Source of the DNA: a virus
Taxonomy: Duplodnaviria; Caudoviricetes
IMG/VR virus record: IMGVR_UViG_3300020045_020419
Span: 1-38,970 of that record
Length of the DNA: 38,970 nt
Reading direction: 5' to 3' (one strand)
The notes under the pieces were generated by a model, which was not told the origin of the DNA, did not search any database, and saw only the letters and a list, made by a program, of their open reading frames with translations. The first letter of the stretch is position 1, and each line of letters opens with the position of its first letter. Shown here piece after piece: positions 22,024-35,607 of this stretch. Made by a program: the position numbers and the translations under genes.

Positions 22024-22066
22024 AAAAAAAGCGGTCGGTAATAATTTACCAACCGTTTTTTTTTTT
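22024..22066. terminator. Bidirectional terminator between the late operon and the integrase
   Basis: A7-GCGGTCGGTAA...TTACCAACCGT followed by a T run, between convergent genes. Confidence 0.85.
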
Positions 22067-23214
22067 TACTCTTTAATTTTTGACACAACAGTATTAATCA
22101 ATTCAATATTAGGTTTCCCAATATATTTACCTACCATTTTTTCAGACTTATGATCAGTTAGTTTTTGAATCACATTTCGTTGTATTCCTGAATTTTCCAA
22201 ATTGGTAATCCCGGTATCGCGATACGAGTACAATTGTGAGTCAAGTCCGAGTCCTGTTTTATCTCGCAGTTTTACCCAATATTTATCCAACTTTTTAGTA
22301 TCAGTTTTTTTAGGTCCTGGTTCCAAATTACTTGTCACTAAATAATAATTAAGTGGATATCTTTCTAAGTGATAATTATCAAGTATTTTTAATACAAGCC
22401 AATCCGGAAGATAAGCATATCTGAAGTTTTTTGTTTTTGATTTGCCTTTGGGTATTTTAATTACTTTTTCATACAAATCAATATTCTCAATTTGCACCCG
22501 GCAAATTTCAGCAGGTCGCAGAAAAGCAGCTCGCACTAAATCTACTACTATTTCAAATTTAGGATAATAGGTTCTGCAATATTCAACTACTTTATCGTGA
22601 ATATGTGGATCAATTACTTGTCTTATTTTTTCGGCTTCAACTTTCTTTTTGAAACCGGTAAACACATTGGATTTAGCATAGTTTTTCTCAATCAACCAAT
22701 ACCACAGCGATTTATAGAATACCATATAATTATTCCATGTTCTGTTTCCAATTTTTGGATCCAGCTCCAATGAAGTCAGAAATTCAACAGCTAAATCTTT
22801 GTTAAAATCGATTACATATATGTTTTGAAGTCGATTATTAGTCAGCCATGTTTTCAACCGTTTCATATATGATTTGTAACTGTTGAATCCATCTTCACGC
22901 ATTTCCTTATCTTTTATGATATAAAATAGATCAATGGCTTCGAATAATAAAGTATATGCTTTTGGCATTTCAGCTTCAATCAATGGGTTTTTACCCATTT
23001 CAAGTTTCATGTTGATTTCAGCACATGCTTTGTTGAGCATTCGCATTATTTCACGTTTCGGATATTTCCCGATCATGTGATTAAATCTTAATACCTTTCG
23101 CTTTTTTTTGTTCTCTTTAGAATCCCAGCAATAGTATTTAATAAGTAATTCTTTTCCTTCACATATCCGTGCAGGCTCGTAGTTTATTTTGAAATTGTCG
23201 TTAATTAATGCCAT
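22066..23214 (-). CDS. int: Phage integrase (tyrosine recombinase)
   Basis: AFLRPAEI, KSK, YSYRDTG, LTDH and KY catalytic motifs; adjacent to attP. Confidence 0.92.
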   Translation of the reverse strand: MALINDNFKINYEPARICEGKELLIKYYCWDSKENKKKRKVLRFNHMIGKYPKREIMRMLNKACAEINMKLEMGKNPLIEAEMPKAYTLLFEAIDLFYIIKDKEMREDGFNSYKSYMKRLKTWLTNNRLQNIYVIDFNKDLAVEFLTSLELDPKIGNRTWNNYMVFYKSLWYWLIEKNYAKSNVFTGFKKKVEAEKIRQVIDPHIHDKVVEYCRTYYPKFEIVVDLVRAAFLRPAEICRVQIENIDLYEKVIKIPKGKSKTKNFRYAYLPDWLVLKILDNYHLERYPLNYYLVTSNLEPGPKKTDTKKLDKYWVKLRDKTGLGLDSQLYSYRDTGITNLENSGIQRNVIQKLTDHKSEKMVGKYIGKPNIELINTVVSKIKE

Positions 23215-28969: not shown

Positions 28970-29362
28970 ATGAGAACAAACAAAACTGTCAAACCATCTG
29001 ACAAAAAGCCGGAAATCCAACGTAAGGAAACCCGAAGAGAACGCAGAGCTATTAAACGCAAAATGGATAATTACTTTAAACTGAAATGCTTTCAAGTTGA
29101 AGTTGAAGTTTGCGATGTAGATGAAACATTTTGGATAATAGCCATTCACGAAGCGCATGTTGATGAATTGCTTTTAGCTTCAGAAGAAAACATTCAGCAT
29201 CCTGATATATGGAGTTACAATGTGCTAAATCCGGAACAAATGAAACAAGTAATTATCAAAAGTGATGATGAAAATAAAGATCCGGAAACAACGCTTTGGG
29301 AGGTGTTCCAAAGCTACGAAGGAGCTGGAGAAATAATATGTTCAACTATGTGGATTGATTGA
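28970..29362 (+). CDS. Hypothetical protein
   Basis: 130 aa with a basic N-terminus and acidic C-terminus. Confidence 0.7.
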   Translation: MRTNKTVKPSDKKPEIQRKETRRERRAIKRKMDNYFKLKCFQVEVEVCDVDETFWIIAIHEAHVDELLLASEENIQHPDIWSYNVLNPEQMKQVIIKSDDENKDPETTLWEVFQSYEGAGEIICSTMWID

Positions 29363-29363
29363 T

Positions 29364-29468
29364 ATGAAAGCGATAACGATAAAACAACCGTGGGCTTCTT
29401 TGATAGTTAAAGGAGTAAAGGATATTGAAAATAGAACGACTAAGGCTATTTTTCAGGCGGGTCTTTAG
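29364..29468 (+). pseudogene. Truncated ASCH-domain gene
   Basis: MKAITIKQPWASLIVKGVKDIENRT matches the ASCH N-terminal signature; similarity stops at AAC 29435-29437. Confidence 0.85.
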
Positions 29469-29555
29469 CAAAATTGAATAGAAATCACAAAACTAAATTA
29501 TTAATATAAACTTGATAGAAATCACTTCCGCCCCGCTTGAAAATAGGCGTGTGTT
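29435..29555. repeat. attC-like site A (121 bp)
   Basis: AAC-N8-CTATTTTTCAGGCGGG ... CCCGCTTGAAAATAG-N6-GTT. Confidence 0.85.
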
Positions 29556-29588
29556 AGGCGGAGTACTTTCTTTCTTATTCAAAAAATT

Positions 29589-29882
29589 ATGAAAACAAGG
29601 AAACAAATTGAGAATTTAATCAAAACAAAACAACGCAAAATCAATGCTTTAAGTGACGAAATAGACCTTCTTAGAATAGAAGAACTACAAATATGTGATT
29701 CTGAACAGACATACGAAGAAAAAGAAGAAGAATGGGTTGTAAAAAGACGTCCAATTACAAAAGAAACTCATGTGATTGGTCGTGTACATTGGGACGAAGA
29801 TTTTATTGACGAAGATACAGGAGACGTAGTTACTATAAATCGAAGTCGACTTGTCCGAAAAGACGGTATCTGGATTTTTTAG
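29589..29882 (+). CDS. Cassette 1 protein with an RpoB-like segment
   Basis: Coiled coil plus WDEDFIDEDTGDVVTINR; the stop overlaps the cassette arm. Confidence 0.8.
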   Translation: MKTRKQIENLIKTKQRKINALSDEIDLLRIEELQICDSEQTYEEKEEEWVVKRRPITKETHVIGRVHWDEDFIDEDTGDVVTINRSRLVRKDGIWIF

Positions 29883-29892
29883 TATTACGCCT

Positions 29893-30017
29893 AACGAAGA
29901 AGACTATGTGCATCCTGCGGGATGCGGGCTTCAAACCTTTCGCAAAGCGAAAAGGTGAAAGCGGGAATATAGACTTCGGAATGCGATTCAGCCAGTAGGT
30001 GAACATAGACGAGTGTT
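29893..30017. repeat. attC-like site B (125 bp)
   Basis: AAC-N8-CTATGTGCATCCTGC ... GTAGGTGAACATAG-N6-GTT. Confidence 0.85.
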
Positions 30018-30068
30018 ATCGGTTCGGCTTATCTTTCTTGTTATCAACAACAAAAAAAATATAAACTT

Positions 30069-30242
30069 ATGGATTTAGTATTTGTAAATGATTGCGCTGT
30101 CGACTGGTGCAATAAAAAAAATGTCGGAAAAGGAAAACAAATGTGCAAAGAACATCAAGCAAAATATGAAGCTGGTGAAAAATTAGTTGCATTTTATGGT
30201 AAAACAGTTCAAAAAAAAGAATTCCAAAATAAGACAGTATGA
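30069..30242 (+). CDS. Cassette 2 protein a, 57 aa, C-x4-C-x11-C-x2-H (not in ORF track)
   Basis: MDLVFVNDCAVDWCNKKNVGKGKQMCKEH...; ATGA overlap with 30239. Confidence 0.7.
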   Translation: MDLVFVNDCAVDWCNKKNVGKGKQMCKEHQAKYEAGEKLVAFYGKTVQKKEFQNKTV

Positions 30243-30430
30243 AAACAAACGACAACGGAGAAACTCAATCTAATCAGTTCAATTTTATAGGAAATTCAAG
30301 TATTAGTTTTTCCCATACTTTCAGAAAAAGTAAAGAGGGAAACATTCATTTGCCTTTTTTCGTGATAGCATACGGAAAAAATGGATTTGTTATTTACCTG
30401 TTGTGTTTCAGCGTCTGCGTTTCTTTTTAA
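30239..30430 (+). CDS. Cassette 2 protein b, 63 aa
   Basis: ATGA-coupled; the stop overlaps the cassette arm. Confidence 0.65.
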   Translation: MKTNDNGETQSNQFNFIGNSSISFSHTFRKSKEGNIHLPFFVIAYGKNGFVIYLLCFSVCVSF

Positions 30431-30440
30431 GCTGACCGAT

Positions 30441-30522
30441 AACGACAGCACTATGTGCGCCCAAACGTACAGAATTGTCAAACAGCATAAAACTGTCTGA
30501 GGGCAGCACATAGAGCCGTGTT
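30441..30522. repeat. attC-like site C (82 bp)
   Basis: AAC-N7-CTATGTGCGCCC ... GGGCAGCACATAG-N6-GTT. Confidence 0.85.
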
Positions 30523-30562
30523 ATGTACAGTGCTTTCTTTCTTATATTTTAAATCGTAAAAT

Positions 30563-30709
30563 ATGAATAAATGAAAATATATTTTTGAAACTGCTACTGT
30601 TCAATGTTTAATTTGTGGTAGGTTTTTCATAAAACAAATGCCGCATTTATGTGGAAAGAATTACAGAAAACATAAAATTAAATGGTTAAAATTAAAACAA
30701 AATGGATAA
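30563..30709 (+). pseudogene. Cassette 3 ORF a: CxxC/HxC mini-protein with TGA at codon 4
   Basis: MNK*KYIFETATVQCLICGRFFIKQMPHLCGKNYRKHKIKWLKLKQNG; overlaps ATG 30702. Confidence 0.5.
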
Positions 30710-30941
30710 CTGTCAAAAAGAAAAATGGCACGACTGCTGCTGTTGCAACTGTGCAAATCATTTAGAAGATTTTCATCATTGTACAACACTACCAAAACCC
30801 GAAGGAGTTTTAGGTTGTGTTTGCTCAACGCATAAAGGTTGGATTTGTCGAATGGCGTTTGACGATTCTTATAAGGTTTATTATCATTCTGGTTGGTCTG
30901 AACACGGAATGTGCGAAATGCACACACCTCGTCTTTCTTAG
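30702..30941 (+). CDS. Cassette 3 Cys/His-rich protein (11 Cys, 8 His in 79 aa)
   Basis: ORF track; the stop overlaps the cassette arm. Confidence 0.75.
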   Translation: MDNCQKEKWHDCCCCNCANHLEDFHHCTTLPKPEGVLGCVCSTHKGWICRMAFDDSYKVYYHSGWSEHGMCEMHTPRLS

Positions 30942-30951
30942 TATTGTACAT

Positions 30952-31072
30952 AACGATAGGGCTAAAAGCATAGCGGGTCTTTAGCAAAGGCAACTGAGCC
31001 GCACAAAATAATCAAAATTAATATTCACTTTCAAGAAATCACATCCGCACCGCTTGCTATTAGCCTTGTGTT
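30952..31072. repeat. attC-like site D (121 bp), homologous to site A
   Basis: AAC-N7-CTAAAAGCATAGCGG ... CCGCTTGCTATTAG-N6-GTT. Confidence 0.85.
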
Positions 31073-31107
31073 ACCGGTTGTTTTTTCTTTCTTCAAAAAA
31101 TTAAACA

Positions 31108-31974
31108 ATGGGAAAATCAAATTCAATTAGAACTTACAGAAATTCTGTAGTTATTCATTTTTCTGAACGTGGTGAGAATTTTACTTTAAAAGTTCCTCAT
31201 TATAACGATTGGATTAATTTAATCCAATTTCTTAAAAAAAGAGGTTTTAAAGTTGGCGAAAACAAATCATACAAAGAACATTACGCATGTTTATCAATGT
31301 ATAATAAATTAGGTTCTAAAAAAGACGTGAGAGTACTAATGGAAATTTGCGCAGACCATATTACACTTGAATTTGGAAACGTAAAAAACTTGTGGACTGG
31401 ACATGCTCAAAGTTTCTGGTCTGATAAAACAGACAATAGATACACTGCTACAACTTATCTTGAAGATAAAGCCGTAGAACTTGAAATAAAAAAGGTTATT
31501 GATAGGTTTAAAGCCAAAGGATTTATGTACGAGCCAAATGATAAGGATAGAACCGATATTGATAATATAATTCATTCAAATAATCATAACTCCCATATAC
31601 ACGGCAAAATTACCTGCCTTGAAGATATTGGAAAATCAATAACCGAAACATCATATAATTACACTCAAAACAGTTGGGATAGAAACCACAAAAGGATTAT
31701 ATGTGGAGATCATAAATGTTTTTACGATTACAACAAAAGGCTTGCTATCGGTGTAGCATGGCACAATATAAATAATATGTGGTGGATAATTGTAAACGGT
31801 AAAAGATATAATAAAGCATCATTTGAGCTTTTTGATTACGATCCAGCTTTGCCAAAAAGAAAACCTGCTGACAAAGATAAAATTACTCGCCTTTTGAAAA
31901 AATATGAATCTGAATTGAATTATGAAAAGTGTATGGCGATTCGGAACTATGCTAAAATTAATAACATCCTTTAA
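31108..31974 (+). CDS. Cassette 4 hypothetical protein (288 aa)
   Basis: ORF fills the cassette; no motif recognised. Confidence 0.85.
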   Translation: MGKSNSIRTYRNSVVIHFSERGENFTLKVPHYNDWINLIQFLKKRGFKVGENKSYKEHYACLSMYNKLGSKKDVRVLMEICADHITLEFGNVKNLWTGHAQSFWSDKTDNRYTATTYLEDKAVELEIKKVIDRFKAKGFMYEPNDKDRTDIDNIIHSNNHNSHIHGKITCLEDIGKSITETSYNYTQNSWDRNHKRIICGDHKCFYDYNKRLAIGVAWHNINNMWWIIVNGKRYNKASFELFDYDPALPKRKPADKDKITRLLKKYESELNYEKCMAIRNYAKINNIL

Positions 31975-32010
31975 AATCAGTGAATGCTGGTATTTTTTAA
32001 AATAACCGGT

Positions 32011-32127
32011 AACGGTCGCTACTATCCTGATTTAGGGGCTTTCACAAATGATGGATAGCGAACAAAACTTACTAATTGCACTTCGGGAGCATAACCCCAC
32101 GCCCCTAAATAGGGATAGTTAGTTGTT
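32011..32127. repeat. attC-like site E (117 bp)
   Basis: AAC-N8-CTATCCTGATTTAGGGGC ... GCCCCTAAATAGGGATAG-N6-GTT. Confidence 0.85.
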
Positions 32128-32513
32128 ATGTACCGTTTATTTCTTTTCTCGGTGTACGCTGAACTGTTATCCGGGAGCAACTCCAAAGCGTTGGGGTGTT
32201 TATATCATTAACAAACAATTTTTTATCATTAATTAAAATTTATTATTAACAAGCATTCTGCTATTGTTCAGTAAAGATTTAGTCCATGAGAAAAAAAGTG
32301 TGCAAATTCTTATCCGCATTTATGCCAAAAGATTGCAGTTAATGCTATTTAAATTAATATGTACCGTTTGCTTCGGTAAATAAGCAATGCAGACTACGTG
32401 TAGGATTAATTACCCAACGGTGGAACATAATCGAATATCTGACGAAGCACAGTACTTAGATTGAAGCGTGGGAACTACGAAAGTGCCTTAAATGAAACTA
32501 ATAATCAAAATAT

Positions 32514-32747
32514 ATGACAAGACAAGAATTTCACCAATTACCAGTATTTCATCAGCGGTTAATTGCTTCTAAAAATGGAATACAAAAAGATAAACGAGAA
32601 CGATCAAAAGCAGTTCAAGGAGTTATCGACAAAACTAGAGTACAAACAAAAGGATATACGGGTGAAGAAGCTCCGAGTGAATTTTATTCTGATAGCCGTG
32701 ATTTATACGCTGAAATAGTCAAAATGAACGGTCGCTTTTTTTTCTAA
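32514..32747 (+). CDS. Cassette 5 protein a (77 aa)
   Basis: A-rich leader; the stop overlaps a degenerate arm. Confidence 0.7.
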   Translation: MTRQEFHQLPVFHQRLIASKNGIQKDKRERSKAVQGVIDKTRVQTKGYTGEEAPSEFYSDSRDLYAEIVKMNGRFFF

Positions 32748-32770
32748 AATAGTACATAATAAAATAATAT

Positions 32771-33001
32771 ATGGAACAAAAAATCAACTTAGGAAAAGCC
32801 AGCGCAGTACGAATACTTGTAGCTGAAGAACTTGGACTTAATCCAGAATATGTGCCACTTGCAAATGAATACATAGTAGGTAAACTTTTTCCACTTCAAT
32901 ACGGAATGCTCGAAAAAGGAGGCATTCAAGCGGTTGAATTAATCAACAACGCAGGACTAACTGATAAAGCCTCCGAACTTGCACAACGCTATTTTTATTA
33001 A
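32771..33001 (+). CDS. Cassette 5 protein b (76 aa)
   Basis: The stop overlaps the cassette arm. Confidence 0.7.
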   Translation: MEQKINLGKASAVRILVAEELGLNPEYVPLANEYIVGKLFPLQYGMLEKGGIQAVELINNAGLTDKASELAQRYFY

Positions 33002-33010
33002 ATGGTACAT

Positions 33011-33131
33011 AACGTTGATAATATGAAAAGTGGCTGCATTCGGTGAGCGAAACTATCAAACTGCAATAAACTTTGATGCGAGCTGTACGATACGAAACGC
33101 AGACAACCAGCCATTTTTTATATTATGTGTT
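33011..33131. repeat. attC-like site F (121 bp)
   Basis: AAC-GTTG-ATAATATGAAAAGTGGCTG ... CAGCCATTTTTTATATTAT-GT-GTT. Confidence 0.85.
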
Positions 33132-33181
33132 AGCGTTTCGTACTTTTTAAATCGAATTTTAAACATTTAAATATCAAAATA

Positions 33182-33718
33182 ATGGAAAAGAATTATAGAA
33201 AAATTGAATTTGGATTAGGAGATATAACCTCCGCTATGAATGAATTGAAAAGGAATAAAGATTTAGTTTGTGGCTCGTTTAACGGACAAATGCTTTATTC
33301 AGATATTGATGATATTGATACAGCTTATAAAAAGATTACAGGCAAAACAAAGGCTGAATTTGATGCTGAAAGAAAAGCTGAAAATGACCGATACAAAGAA
33401 GAGGAGAGAAAACACAAAGAAGCTATTCCTGAACTTACAAAAGAATGGATTGAAAAAGGCAAAGCGATACTTGCTGAAAAATACCATGAAACTTGGATTG
33501 AATGTGTACCAATAAGATTAGACGATTTATATAGAGGCATGGAATTAGGTAATTGCCTAACTATTGTTAAAGAACTTAATGCAGGTTGCGAACTTGCCAC
33601 AGCAAAAACCATAATTGAAGAACAAGGACACTCTGGAATGTCATTCGGTTTGGTTTGCTCAATGGTTAAATCTTTTTGCGATAGAGGTGAAGAATTTGCA
33701 AGTTACGCACGGTCTTAG
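33182..33718 (+). CDS. Cassette 6 hypothetical protein (178 aa, GHSGMS motif)
   Basis: ORF fills the cassette; the stop overlaps the arm. Confidence 0.85.
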   Translation: MEKNYRKIEFGLGDITSAMNELKRNKDLVCGSFNGQMLYSDIDDIDTAYKKITGKTKAEFDAERKAENDRYKEEERKHKEAIPELTKEWIEKGKAILAEKYHETWIECVPIRLDDLYRGMELGNCLTIVKELNAGCELATAKTIIEEQGHSGMSFGLVCSMVKSFCDRGEEFASYARS

Positions 33719-33728
33719 TATGAACGCT

Positions 33729-33782
33729 AACAACTATCTATAAAAAAATCTATTTATAAACTAACTATCAAACAATTACAAC
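33729..33782. other. attI-like site
   Basis: Last AAC, followed by N6-CTAT but no hairpin. AACTATC direct repeat at 33732 and 33763. Abuts the recombinase ATG. Confidence 0.65.
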
Positions 33783-34616
33783 ATGAATATCGGAAACTAC
33801 ACAAACCAACTTTCCAAATCAATTCGATATAAAAGGTATTCTGAGCATACGGTTAGTAGTTATGTAGCTCAAATAGAAAAGTTCCTGAAGCATTTTGAAA
33901 AAGTGGCAACAAAACCATCTGAAATATCGGCAAAGCAGATAACAGAATATTTAGGATCAATGAATAATCATGCATCGCATAAAGCAGCATTATGTGCTAT
34001 TAAGTATTTTTATAGTGAAGTTGGTCACCAACCACGTAAACTTGACAAGGTGAAATTTCCAAAAAAGAATTATAAACTTCCAATAGTACTTAGTCAGGAT
34101 GAAATACAGCGAATGTTTACAGCTTGTACTAATTTAAAACACAAAGTGATTCTTTCATTGCTATACAGTACCGGTTTGCGAGTTTCTGAATTACTTAATC
34201 TAAAGTGGAGTCATATCGATCGTAGCCGAATGATAATAAATGTTATTCAGGGGAAAGGGAAAAAGGATAGACAGGTAATGTTACCACCTACTATAATTCC
34301 ATTGCTAGAAAAGTACTGGTTAGAATATAAACCGAAAGATTATGTGCTAAATGGACAGTTTACTATTCAGTATTCACAAACGAGTGTAAATGCAGTAGTC
34401 AAAGATTTAGCCAATAAAGCAGGAATAACTAAACTAGTATACACGCATCTTATTCGTCATTGTAGCCTTACACACATGTACGAAAATGGAGTAGATATTT
34501 ATGCACTTCAAAAACTAGCCGGACATAATTCAGCTAAAACCACAGCCATATATACCCATATGTCTGATAATATAATAAGTAGAATTCAATCACCAATAGC
34601 AAACATAAATTTATAA
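33783..34616 (+). CDS. IntI-related tyrosine recombinase (277 aa)
   Basis: YSEHTVSSY, KLPIVLSQDEI, LLYSTGLRVSE, GKGKKDR, HLIRH, LAGH and TTAIY; complete catalytic set. Confidence 0.93.
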   Translation: MNIGNYTNQLSKSIRYKRYSEHTVSSYVAQIEKFLKHFEKVATKPSEISAKQITEYLGSMNNHASHKAALCAIKYFYSEVGHQPRKLDKVKFPKKNYKLPIVLSQDEIQRMFTACTNLKHKVILSLLYSTGLRVSELLNLKWSHIDRSRMIINVIQGKGKKDRQVMLPPTIIPLLEKYWLEYKPKDYVLNGQFTIQYSQTSVNAVVKDLANKAGITKLVYTHLIRHCSLTHMYENGVDIYALQKLAGHNSAKTTAIYTHMSDNIISRIQSPIANINL

Positions 34617-34621
34617 CCAAT

Positions 34622-34819
34622 ATGAGCAAAACATTATTCCCATTCCGACAGCCATTCCGTGACAATAACGGAGATGTAGTTATTAAAAGCAGCGAAACAA
34701 CAGTACACGGCATAACTACCATACAAGTAGCTGAAAATAAACGAGACTATAAACCCGATCAGCTTCAACCAATTACACCTGAAGAGTTCCAAAAATATTT
34801 ACATAACGACTTTGAGTAA
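34622..34819 (+). CDS. Hypothetical protein
   Basis: 65 aa, starting 5 nt after the recombinase stop. Confidence 0.6.
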   Translation: MSKTLFPFRQPFRDNNGDVVIKSSETTVHGITTIQVAENKRDYKPDQLQPITPEEFQKYLHNDFE

Positions 34820-34823
34820 AACT

Positions 34824-35027
34824 ATGAACGCAAAAGAATTTTTCGACACAGTTGCATCAATGCGCGAAAATCAACGAAGATATTCCCAAACCAGGAGCCA
34901 CATATTTCTTACCGAAAGCAAAAAATTAGAAAAGATCGTAGACGAAGAAATATCCAGAGTAAATGGAACAATCTCAAAAAGTATAATTGAACAAAATTTA
35001 CCTTCTTTATTTGATGAGCATGAATAA
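34824..35027 (+). CDS. Hypothetical protein
   Basis: MNAKEFFDTVASMRENQRRY...; ATG 34824 preferred over TTG 34812. Confidence 0.7.
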   Translation: MNAKEFFDTVASMRENQRRYSQTRSHIFLTESKKLEKIVDEEISRVNGTISKSIIEQNLPSLFDEHE

Positions 35028-35068
35028 TAATTAAGCGAGCTGCAGTAACTGTGGTTCGCTTAATTATT
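35026..35068 (+). terminator. Long hairpin ending the early operon
   Basis: AATAATTAAGCGAGCTGCAG-TAA-CTGTGGTTCGCTTAATTATT. Confidence 0.6.
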
Positions 35069-35283
35069 GAATAATCACCACCACTCAAAACAACTTACCA
35101 ATACCCGGCCATCAGTAATTCCCCCTACAGAGATTTTAATTAGTACCGTTTGTTTTCTTTCTGCTTAAACAAGACTTTACCGTGAGTTAGTGTTCAGCTA
35201 TACGCTTCTTATATATTATTAATAAAATTAAGTTTGCATAATATAAATTTTATTATCGCATAACTAAATAATTGCATTAGTAA

Positions 35284-35468
35284 ACCTACCACATACCACA
35301 ATTACATATAAATGTCTGAAAATCAGCACAAAAATAGTGGTATGTATGAATAAAAATACAAATTACCACAACAAACCACAACCAACCACAAAAATGAGCA
35401 TACCACGTACATACCACATTTATATTTTTGATAATTAAATAGTTAAATGCTTGTGGTATGTGGTAGGT
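35284..35468. repeat. Iteron-like (T)ACCAC cluster, putative replication origin
   Basis: Perfect 18-bp inverted repeat (35284-35301/35451-35468) enclosing multiple ACCAC/GTGGT units; AT-rich flanks. Confidence 0.6.
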
Positions 35469-35607
35469 AAAATATTTATGAATAAGAAAAACACAAAAAA
35501 AACAGCAAAATTTCAGTAAAAAAGTAGCTAAAAATTTGATTATCAGAAAATTAATTACTAAATTTACTGCTAAAAACCTGTTACCAAACCAATAAAGCCA
35601 AATAATT

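Follow-up and report, generated by a model that had tools for sequence, protein, structure and literature searches.

An integron-like array of hairpin-bounded gene cassettes beside a tyrosine recombinase without the I2 insert in a Caudoviricetes genome

The IMG/VR virus record IMGVR_UViG_3300020045_020419 (38,970 nt, Caudoviricetes, CheckV completeness 98%), here called the window and analyzed over its entire length, holds an array of gene cassettes that ends against a tyrosine recombinase gene and recalls an integron. Every feature of the array lies on the + strand. Six attC-like hairpins, measured from AAC to GTT, stand at 29435..29555 (121 nt), 29893..30017 (125 nt), 30441..30522 (82 nt), 30952..31072 (121 nt), 32011..32127 (117 nt), and 33011..33131 (121 nt), the first being 75% like the fourth over 77 nt. 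Each opens a unit, measured from AAC to AAC, that also contains one or two open reading frames (ORFs): cassette 1 (29435..29892, 458 bp) has one of 97 aa at 29589-29882 with a weak match to phrog_35807; cassette 2 (29893..30440, 548 bp) has two, at 30069-30242 (57 aa) and 30239-30430 (63 aa); cassette 3 (30441..30951, 511 bp) has a Cys-rich one at 30702-30941 (79 aa); cassette 4 (30952..32010, 1059 bp) has one of 288 aa at 31108-31974, assigned to phrog_7674, of unknown function; cassette 5 (32011..33010, 1000 bp) has two, at 32514-32747 (77 aa) and 32771-33001 (76 aa), behind a leader of about 390 nt; and cassette 6 (33011..33728, 718 bp) has one of 178 aa at 33182-33718. Cassette 6 adjoins an attI-like site (33728..33782), in which a TAAC core without a hairpin is followed by an ATCTAT-type box and an AT-rich leader, and the recombinase gene comes next (33783..34616, 277 aa). 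An earlier note on this DNA had located the six hairpins, their 12 arms, and the unit sizes, all at correct coordinates, and had rightly placed a tyrosine recombinase directly after the last AAC, from which its ATG is separated by 51 nt. A profile trained on related loci and run over both strands returned these six sites only, site 1 weakly.

The arms that flank each unit pair across the gene rather than across the hairpin. By ungapped Watson-Crick count, the 5' and 3' arms of units 1 to 6 match at 10, 8, 10, 11, 11, and 6 of 12 positions, compared with a maximum of 7 of 12 between different units, while random GTT/AAC pairs in the window reach 9 of 12 with P=0.001. The across-gene match claimed earlier therefore stands for units 1-5, where own-unit pairing is best. 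Units 2 and 6 need a 1-nt bulge to pair, which is why unit 6 ties with the background in the ungapped count. The expectation that a full stem forms in an excised circle agrees with predicted folding, modest for the isolated hairpins (z 0.0 to -3.5) and strong for the own-circle junctions (z -3.9 to -5.4). The consensus first proposed, AAC-N7/8-CTAT...ATAG-N6-GTT, is exact in sites 1, 2, 3, and 5 and covaries to CTAA/TTAG in site 4; it fails in site 6. Five of the six last stop codons overlap the 3' arm, as had been noted, ending 12-13 nt before the AAC end; that of cassette 4 lies 39 nt before it. Hairpins between co-oriented genes, some of them sharing sequence, might instead be RNA elements such as terminators or processing sites, the modules being moved by recombination, ordinary or through microhomology, or else by double-strand exchange between short cores. 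However, an RNA role leaves the pairing of arms across a gene unexplained, none of the six hairpins is called terminator-like, and an Rfam search over 29000-35600 gave no relevant match.

The same architecture recurs across the recombinase family. Around 70 dereplicated recombinase loci (among them the window and the phages Leef_1 and Freya_10), 181 sites fall in 345 kb of upstream DNA versus 4 in 542 kb downstream, a contrast to be discounted somewhat because upstream DNA supplied the seed of the site profile and the upstream count is thereby favored. All 36 distinct loci with at least 3 kb of upstream DNA have a site at a relaxed score. Over 179 unique units, arms pair at 7.5 of 10 positions within their own unit, versus 3.7 across the hairpin and 3.8 after shuffling. 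The circle form is predicted to be more stable than the array form in 163 of 164 comparisons, and the + strand fold beats the - strand fold in 161 of the same 164. The arms contain 180 G.T pairs on the + strand and 6 on the - strand, with arm pair 8 being G.T in 155/175; because these conserved wobbles lie on the + strand, that strand would be the folded substrate. In predicted folds, the AAC arm is longer by 2-4 nucleotides immediately within the triad in 154 of 161 scored sites, and the arm opposite AAC shows no conserved single extrahelical base, its single bulges being scattered (33 in 166 sites). Folded alike, most Vibrio and class 1 sites have a loop that is nearly symmetric, and their GTT arm carries a bulge.

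The two ends of the array differ. A hairpin-less motif like that of the window precedes the recombinase in 68/70 dereplicated loci by pattern (67/70 after L059 was removed by eye) and lies 51-52 nt before the ATG in 46/56 profile-called loci, while the DNA to its left varies between related loci and relatives of the window diverge left of 33728. This conserved motif, which the earlier note had not named, is an attI-like site next to the 5' end of the recombinase gene, where cassettes enter. In L042 and L059 an inverted repeat takes its place directly before the ATG. At the distal end, no cassette arm precedes the first AAC, which interrupts an ASCH-like gene after 24 codons; the fragment (29364..29437) matches positions 1-24 of 103 of PF04266 at E 0.0014, under the cut-off, and the remainder of the gene was not found anywhere in the record. 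Since the arm is missing and the gene is cut off there, the platform or its first cassette appears to have entered at this AAC.

The recombinase is not an IntI. Its catalytic residues R133, K158, H222, R225, H248, and Y257 are intact and invariant in 39/39 aligned sequences, and 2,772 relatives were found at E 1e-30 or better. Against TIGR02249 (IntI) it scores 170 bits, where the cut-off is 265, with the match split in two stretches; XerD (159/330 bits versus cut-off) and XerC (157/335) are likewise under their cut-offs, as is the best profile, XerA (NF040815, 197/220). About 43 aa are absent relative to IntI4, and the stretch that would bear I2 has 56 aa here versus 99 in two Vibrio IntI and 63-64 in XerD, by a motif-based count that did not work for IntI1 and six other rows. 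The predicted model has only helices H169-182 and H199-212 in that region. XerA 5HXY is the best match in PDB by sequence and by fold, IntI4 comes next by Foldseek E-value, and a C-terminal SP[LI] motif is common to the recombinase and IntI. In trees built without an archaeal XerA row (L011 dropped for an internal stop, L190 and L192 unused), the family stands apart from XerC/XerD, and IntI lies beside it in one tree and within it in the other; approximately unbiased (AU) tests reject neither family+IntI (p 0.21) nor family+Xer (p 0.065), and rooting with arm-type integrases did not bring the outgroup to one side of a branch. Two loci, L005 and L092, have a truncated recombinase, and L079:4561-5538 is a second tyrosine recombinase gene inside a cassette. 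The recombinase of L011-L013, 78% identical, has an in-frame TAG at codon 143, which may mean a broken gene or another genetic code.

Comparison with relatives shows that the mobile unit is the hairpin together with its downstream gene or genes, and that near-identical phages exchange units at AAC. The recombinase and attI region is common to nine viral loci, at 99.9-100% identity in eight and at 96% in one (ungapped count), and these loci hold at least three different arrays. Between L073/L077 and L070/L074/L078, whose recombinase and attI are 99.9% identical, four cassettes stand in another order; each is 100% identical including its upstream hairpin, identity stops inside TAAC(G), and the common flanks are limited to (C)TAA and C(GG). 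Independent movement of hairpin and gene was considered and rejected for such identical cassettes, which keep their own upstream hairpin. Two public sequencing runs from two studies (X1 and X2) match the window from exactly 33728 across the recombinase at about 97%, with 34 differences over 33728-35024 and 23 over 33728-34612, and each has a different arm-like end before 33728. A third run (X3) has a homolog of cassette 6 and then other DNA after 33731, and the likeness of cassette 6 to L215 and L229 stops at the same position. The integron-cassette logic first proposed, with its suggestion to compare cassette content and order in relatives, is upheld by these data: numbers and orders differ, the units are joined at AAC, and a fixed order with breakpoints unrelated to AAC was looked for in relatives and not found. 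Homologs of cassette 6 in L221 and L222 occur as single units without a detected hairpin after the 3' AAC, as if inserted at a secondary site.

A copy that is genuine in kind and yet frozen in the window as a relic would fit a distal edge that cuts the ASCH gene, and broken copies do exist, L011 with its in-frame TAG being one. Intact catalytic residues in the window and other DNA at attI in its 97%-identical relatives make such a relic quite improbable.

Cultured phages extend these observations. When Polaribacter phages Freya_1, 2, 5, 6, 8, and 9 are set against Freya_10 (a comparison that covers six of the ten isolates, with Freya_3, 4, and 7 outside it), the differences in the array region consist of AAC-joined blocks only (6/6). 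Freya_1 equals Freya_10 minus 4,942 bp, without a single mismatch across 43,978 bp, and Freya_6 has an additional 472-bp unit at attI. In that unit (L235:461-932) the annotated gene lies inside the hairpin loop, of about 290 nt, and not after the hairpin. The main text of the isolation paper, in its available part, contains neither "integron" nor "cassette" and interprets the integrase as pointing to a temperate lifestyle (PMC8776804). Danklef_1-5, Ingeline_1-8, and Leef_1 are other cultured Flavobacteriaceae phages with the same recombinase type, and among the Danklef isolates the DNA upstream of an apparently split gene differs in length.

In orientation, the phage arrays are both classical and reversed. 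A Vibrio integron carries AACG...TGTT on the intI-sense strand and most of its genes on the other, and the bottom strand of aadA7 shows the same orientation; because the window sites have AACG...TGTT on the recombinase-sense strand, platform and site polarity are classical. Genes are another matter: among 164 phage-type cassettes from 64 loci, the longest ORF is on the recombinase-sense strand in 134, on the opposite strand in 9, and absent in 21, and all listed cassette ORFs of the window face the recombinase. Phage cassette genes are reversed relative to classical integron arrays, with site polarity unchanged; single reversed ORFs do occur in classical arrays, the difference here being an entire reversed pool. 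Among 62 other genome loci with more distant recombinases, some of which may be prophages, 15 hold cassettes, with an ORF strand count of 1 versus 27 (4 with none), and the position of the array relative to the recombinase is upstream at some loci and downstream at others. These bacterial relatives keep the classical gene/site orientation (27/28). The same oriented site therefore occurs antisense to genes in bacteria, which again argues against hairpins that act as RNA. RecT, encoded by Freya, speaks for ordinary recombination of modules, but the junctions share just 3-6 nt with AAC always included, and RNA hairpins moved in this way are the least probable of the explanations weighed here.

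Another explanation assigns the movement of cassettes to a host enzyme acting in trans, a canonical IntI or XerCD, and leaves the adjoining recombinase to lysogeny or dimer resolution. The phage P12002L has such sites on the gene strand and no recombinase match at E 1e-20, and XerCD, without I2, recombines folded CTXphi DNA, as described in the available part of PMC4792948. It is nevertheless difficult to see why, under host control, attI should lie at a fixed distance from the recombinase ATG, or why attI and attC subtypes should covary (ATCTAT-type attI accompanies TAG-type hairpins in 7/10 versus 1/124 elsewhere, counts that are not independent, the ATCTAT group amounting to about four lineages, which weakens them). 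A second integrase is encoded at 22066-23214 and would account for lysogeny; TIGR02249 is over its cut-off in 0/5 Bacteroidota genomes. The available text of PMC9892861 further reports that P12002L_attC1, the one genuine hairpin of this type that was assayed, was the only one of six sites that IntI1 did not recombine (one site, in array form). Movement by a host enzyme is, on balance, very unlikely.

We consider it highly probable, from the patterns set out above, that the array's own recombinase cleaves the gene strand, in folded form, at AA|C, frees a circle of hairpin and gene in which the stem is completed, and inserts such circles at attI; the array system is real and, judging from sequence comparison, very probably active. 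In an excised circle, about 12 bp of stem would form again beyond AAC/GTT and make up a complete half-site for binding; circles would therefore recombine better than arrayed sites, favoring insertion at attI. The one-sided bulge of 2-4 nt inside the triad could take over from I2 in preventing exchange of the second strand, with the junction left to replication for resolution. Reversed genes would be read from the upstream operon of the phage, and host-type cassettes would therefore land antisense. Most of the family's cargo may counter host defense.

Several observations weigh against this account of a self-contained shuffling system. Several homologs of the genes in cassettes 4 and 6 lack detected sites: an upstream site was detected in 9 of 15 loci for cassette 6 and in neither of the 2 phage loci for cassette 4. 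Four more distant cassette pairs have upstream hairpins that are 0.61-0.85 alike beside bodies at 77-98%, and this greater divergence implies that hairpins are also replaced at times. Three of the six Freya junctions coincide with the record origin, and the Freya recombinase, on a long branch, is 29% identical to that of the window; RecT in Freya belongs here too. A contig that runs from 29896 back to 29443 does so through intervening letters of its own; this joint may be a different cassette rather than a circle. The substitution of a bulge for I2 is offered tentatively, since I2 is described, in the part of PMC7790495 available, as what solves single-strand recombination.

The window shares with classical integrons (IntI1, Vibrio IntIA/IntI4) a hairpin-less site that adjoins the 5' end of the recombinase gene, an array that extends away from it, the AAC/GTT triad, the C-terminal SP[LI] motif, and, as far as the accessible text of PMC5027507 goes, site polarity with a G.T skew on the cut strand. 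It has the catalytic set, an attI-like site, attC-like hairpins with strand asymmetry, and discrete mobile units with an AAC crossover; it has outer arms of about 12 bp beyond the triad and a 2-4 nt one-sided bulge, and lacks the I2 insert and conserved extrahelical bases. Its genes face the recombinase, unlike classical ones, which point away from intI and are read from Pc at attI. The system probably functions like an integron and is not a canonical one; the classical likeness seen by the earlier note holds for the cassette logic, and does not extend to the enzyme or the gene orientation.

Among described systems, the closest in site type are the phage integrons and clusters of attC sites lacking an integrase (CALINs) of Qi 2023 (PMC9892861), where P12002L_attC1 is a hairpin of this type and methyltransferase cassettes occur; its available text treats integrase-less clusters or captured bacterial integrons and mentions no cognate phage recombinase, attI, or shuffling. 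The novelty supposed for Bacteroidota phages is thereby reduced, the site type being in print for P12002L, though there without a cognate recombinase. In P12002L no recombinase follows the array, whose last part (L086:29180-29245) is AT-rich and attI-like and is called P12002L_attC2 in the accessible part of that paper; this site falls on the AT-rich terminus behind the last AAC and, in our reading, resembles the attI region of the present system. The "Integron-like" subgroup of Smyshlyaev 2021 (PMC8138268), as presented in the text available, has 0 viral members and no arrays, and the insertion is called essential for integron function. XerA and XerCD with CTXphi are alike in having a compact I2-less enzyme and in recombining a folded strand without I2 (same available text of PMC4792948), and unlike in that here the phage has its own enzyme, a multi-cassette array, and variable site sequences, with a recombinase family outside the XerC/XerD clade that scores under the family cut-offs. 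No phage array with its own I2-less recombinase was found in the literature, in a search weak on subscription papers, which may describe one.

According to the accepted account, as given in the portion of PMC7790495 seen, acquisition of the I2 helix is what gave integron integrases single-strand recombination, and integron finders recognize IntI by its I2 domain (PMC9024848, in part); for that reason they would miss an I2-less cassette-shuffling family. A viral origin of integrons has been speculated on (PMC4792948, likewise in part). A bolder reading, to which we give slightly less than an even chance, is that an I2-less lineage recombines folded single-stranded sites by means of long arms and a one-sided bulge, which stand in for extrahelical bases; that it is a surviving pre-I2 integron, widespread in Bacteroidota; and that phages run it as a strand-reversed bank of shuffled counter-defense genes, kept separate from the host pool by gene polarity and already active in cultured Freya. 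Shuffling of attC-like sites without I2, if true, bears on where integrons came from, and the array would give phages a programmed way to stock accessory genes. The cultured pair of Freya and Polaribacter sp. HaHaR_3_91, with its natural array variants, makes the question testable now.

The cargo scan covered 105/109 cassette ORFs with 80 or more codons, the four left out being two from the window and two overlapping frames. Pfam matches were obtained for 31/105: 19 DNA methyltransferases, 3 PAPS-reductase-like proteins, 2 TAGT glycosyltransferases, 1 Tad3, and 6 others, the Tad3 (Thoeris inhibitor) domain lying in a cassette ORF at L026:7754-8365 (E 3e-20). The eight cassette ORFs of the window gave no Pfam match over the cut-off and none in NCBIfam or PADLOC. 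In Atlas, cassette 6 matches unnamed viral clusters, with a lead below 0.9 to a cluster that is 10% Tad4, and cassette 4 gave no match; the single-sequence fold of cassette 6 is poor (pLDDT 57). Domain content supports the anti-defense role first proposed for the family, with its 19/105 methyltransferases, and not for the six cassettes of the window.

Several minor features were recorded in and around the array. The long leader of cassette 5 (32128-32513) contains a stretch, 32144-32176, that public runs also carry in other contexts, and a motif near 32354 that is found again near 35136; a structured RNA in this leader was considered and rejected (folding z +0.28). A sigma-70 promoter scan was below chance (46 matches versus 54), and a Bacteroidota promoter pattern had 8 matches versus 4 expected, none inside the array. 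No public sequencing run covers half of the stretch, no RNA run is among the listed holders, and a metagenome scan gave 4 related loci, all at 71% or less. Elsewhere the window encodes a terminase, tape measure protein, endolysin, head protease, and regulator. Most of the best 80 recombinase loci in genome contigs are titled Bacteroidota, from which we infer the host phylum; the window is probably a Bacteroidota-type phage. Beyond the recombinase (35025-35029 and 35026-35068), the letters at 35024/35029 give way in a 97%-identical relative to 431 different ones, beside a 21-bp inverted repeat, and the non-coding gap 35284-35468 contains an inverted repeat whose two perfect 18-bp copies stand 149 nt apart, along with direct repeats rich in ACCAC. 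Genome G006 carries a related recombinase in at least eight copies of equal score, which suggests a transposon-like use of the family.

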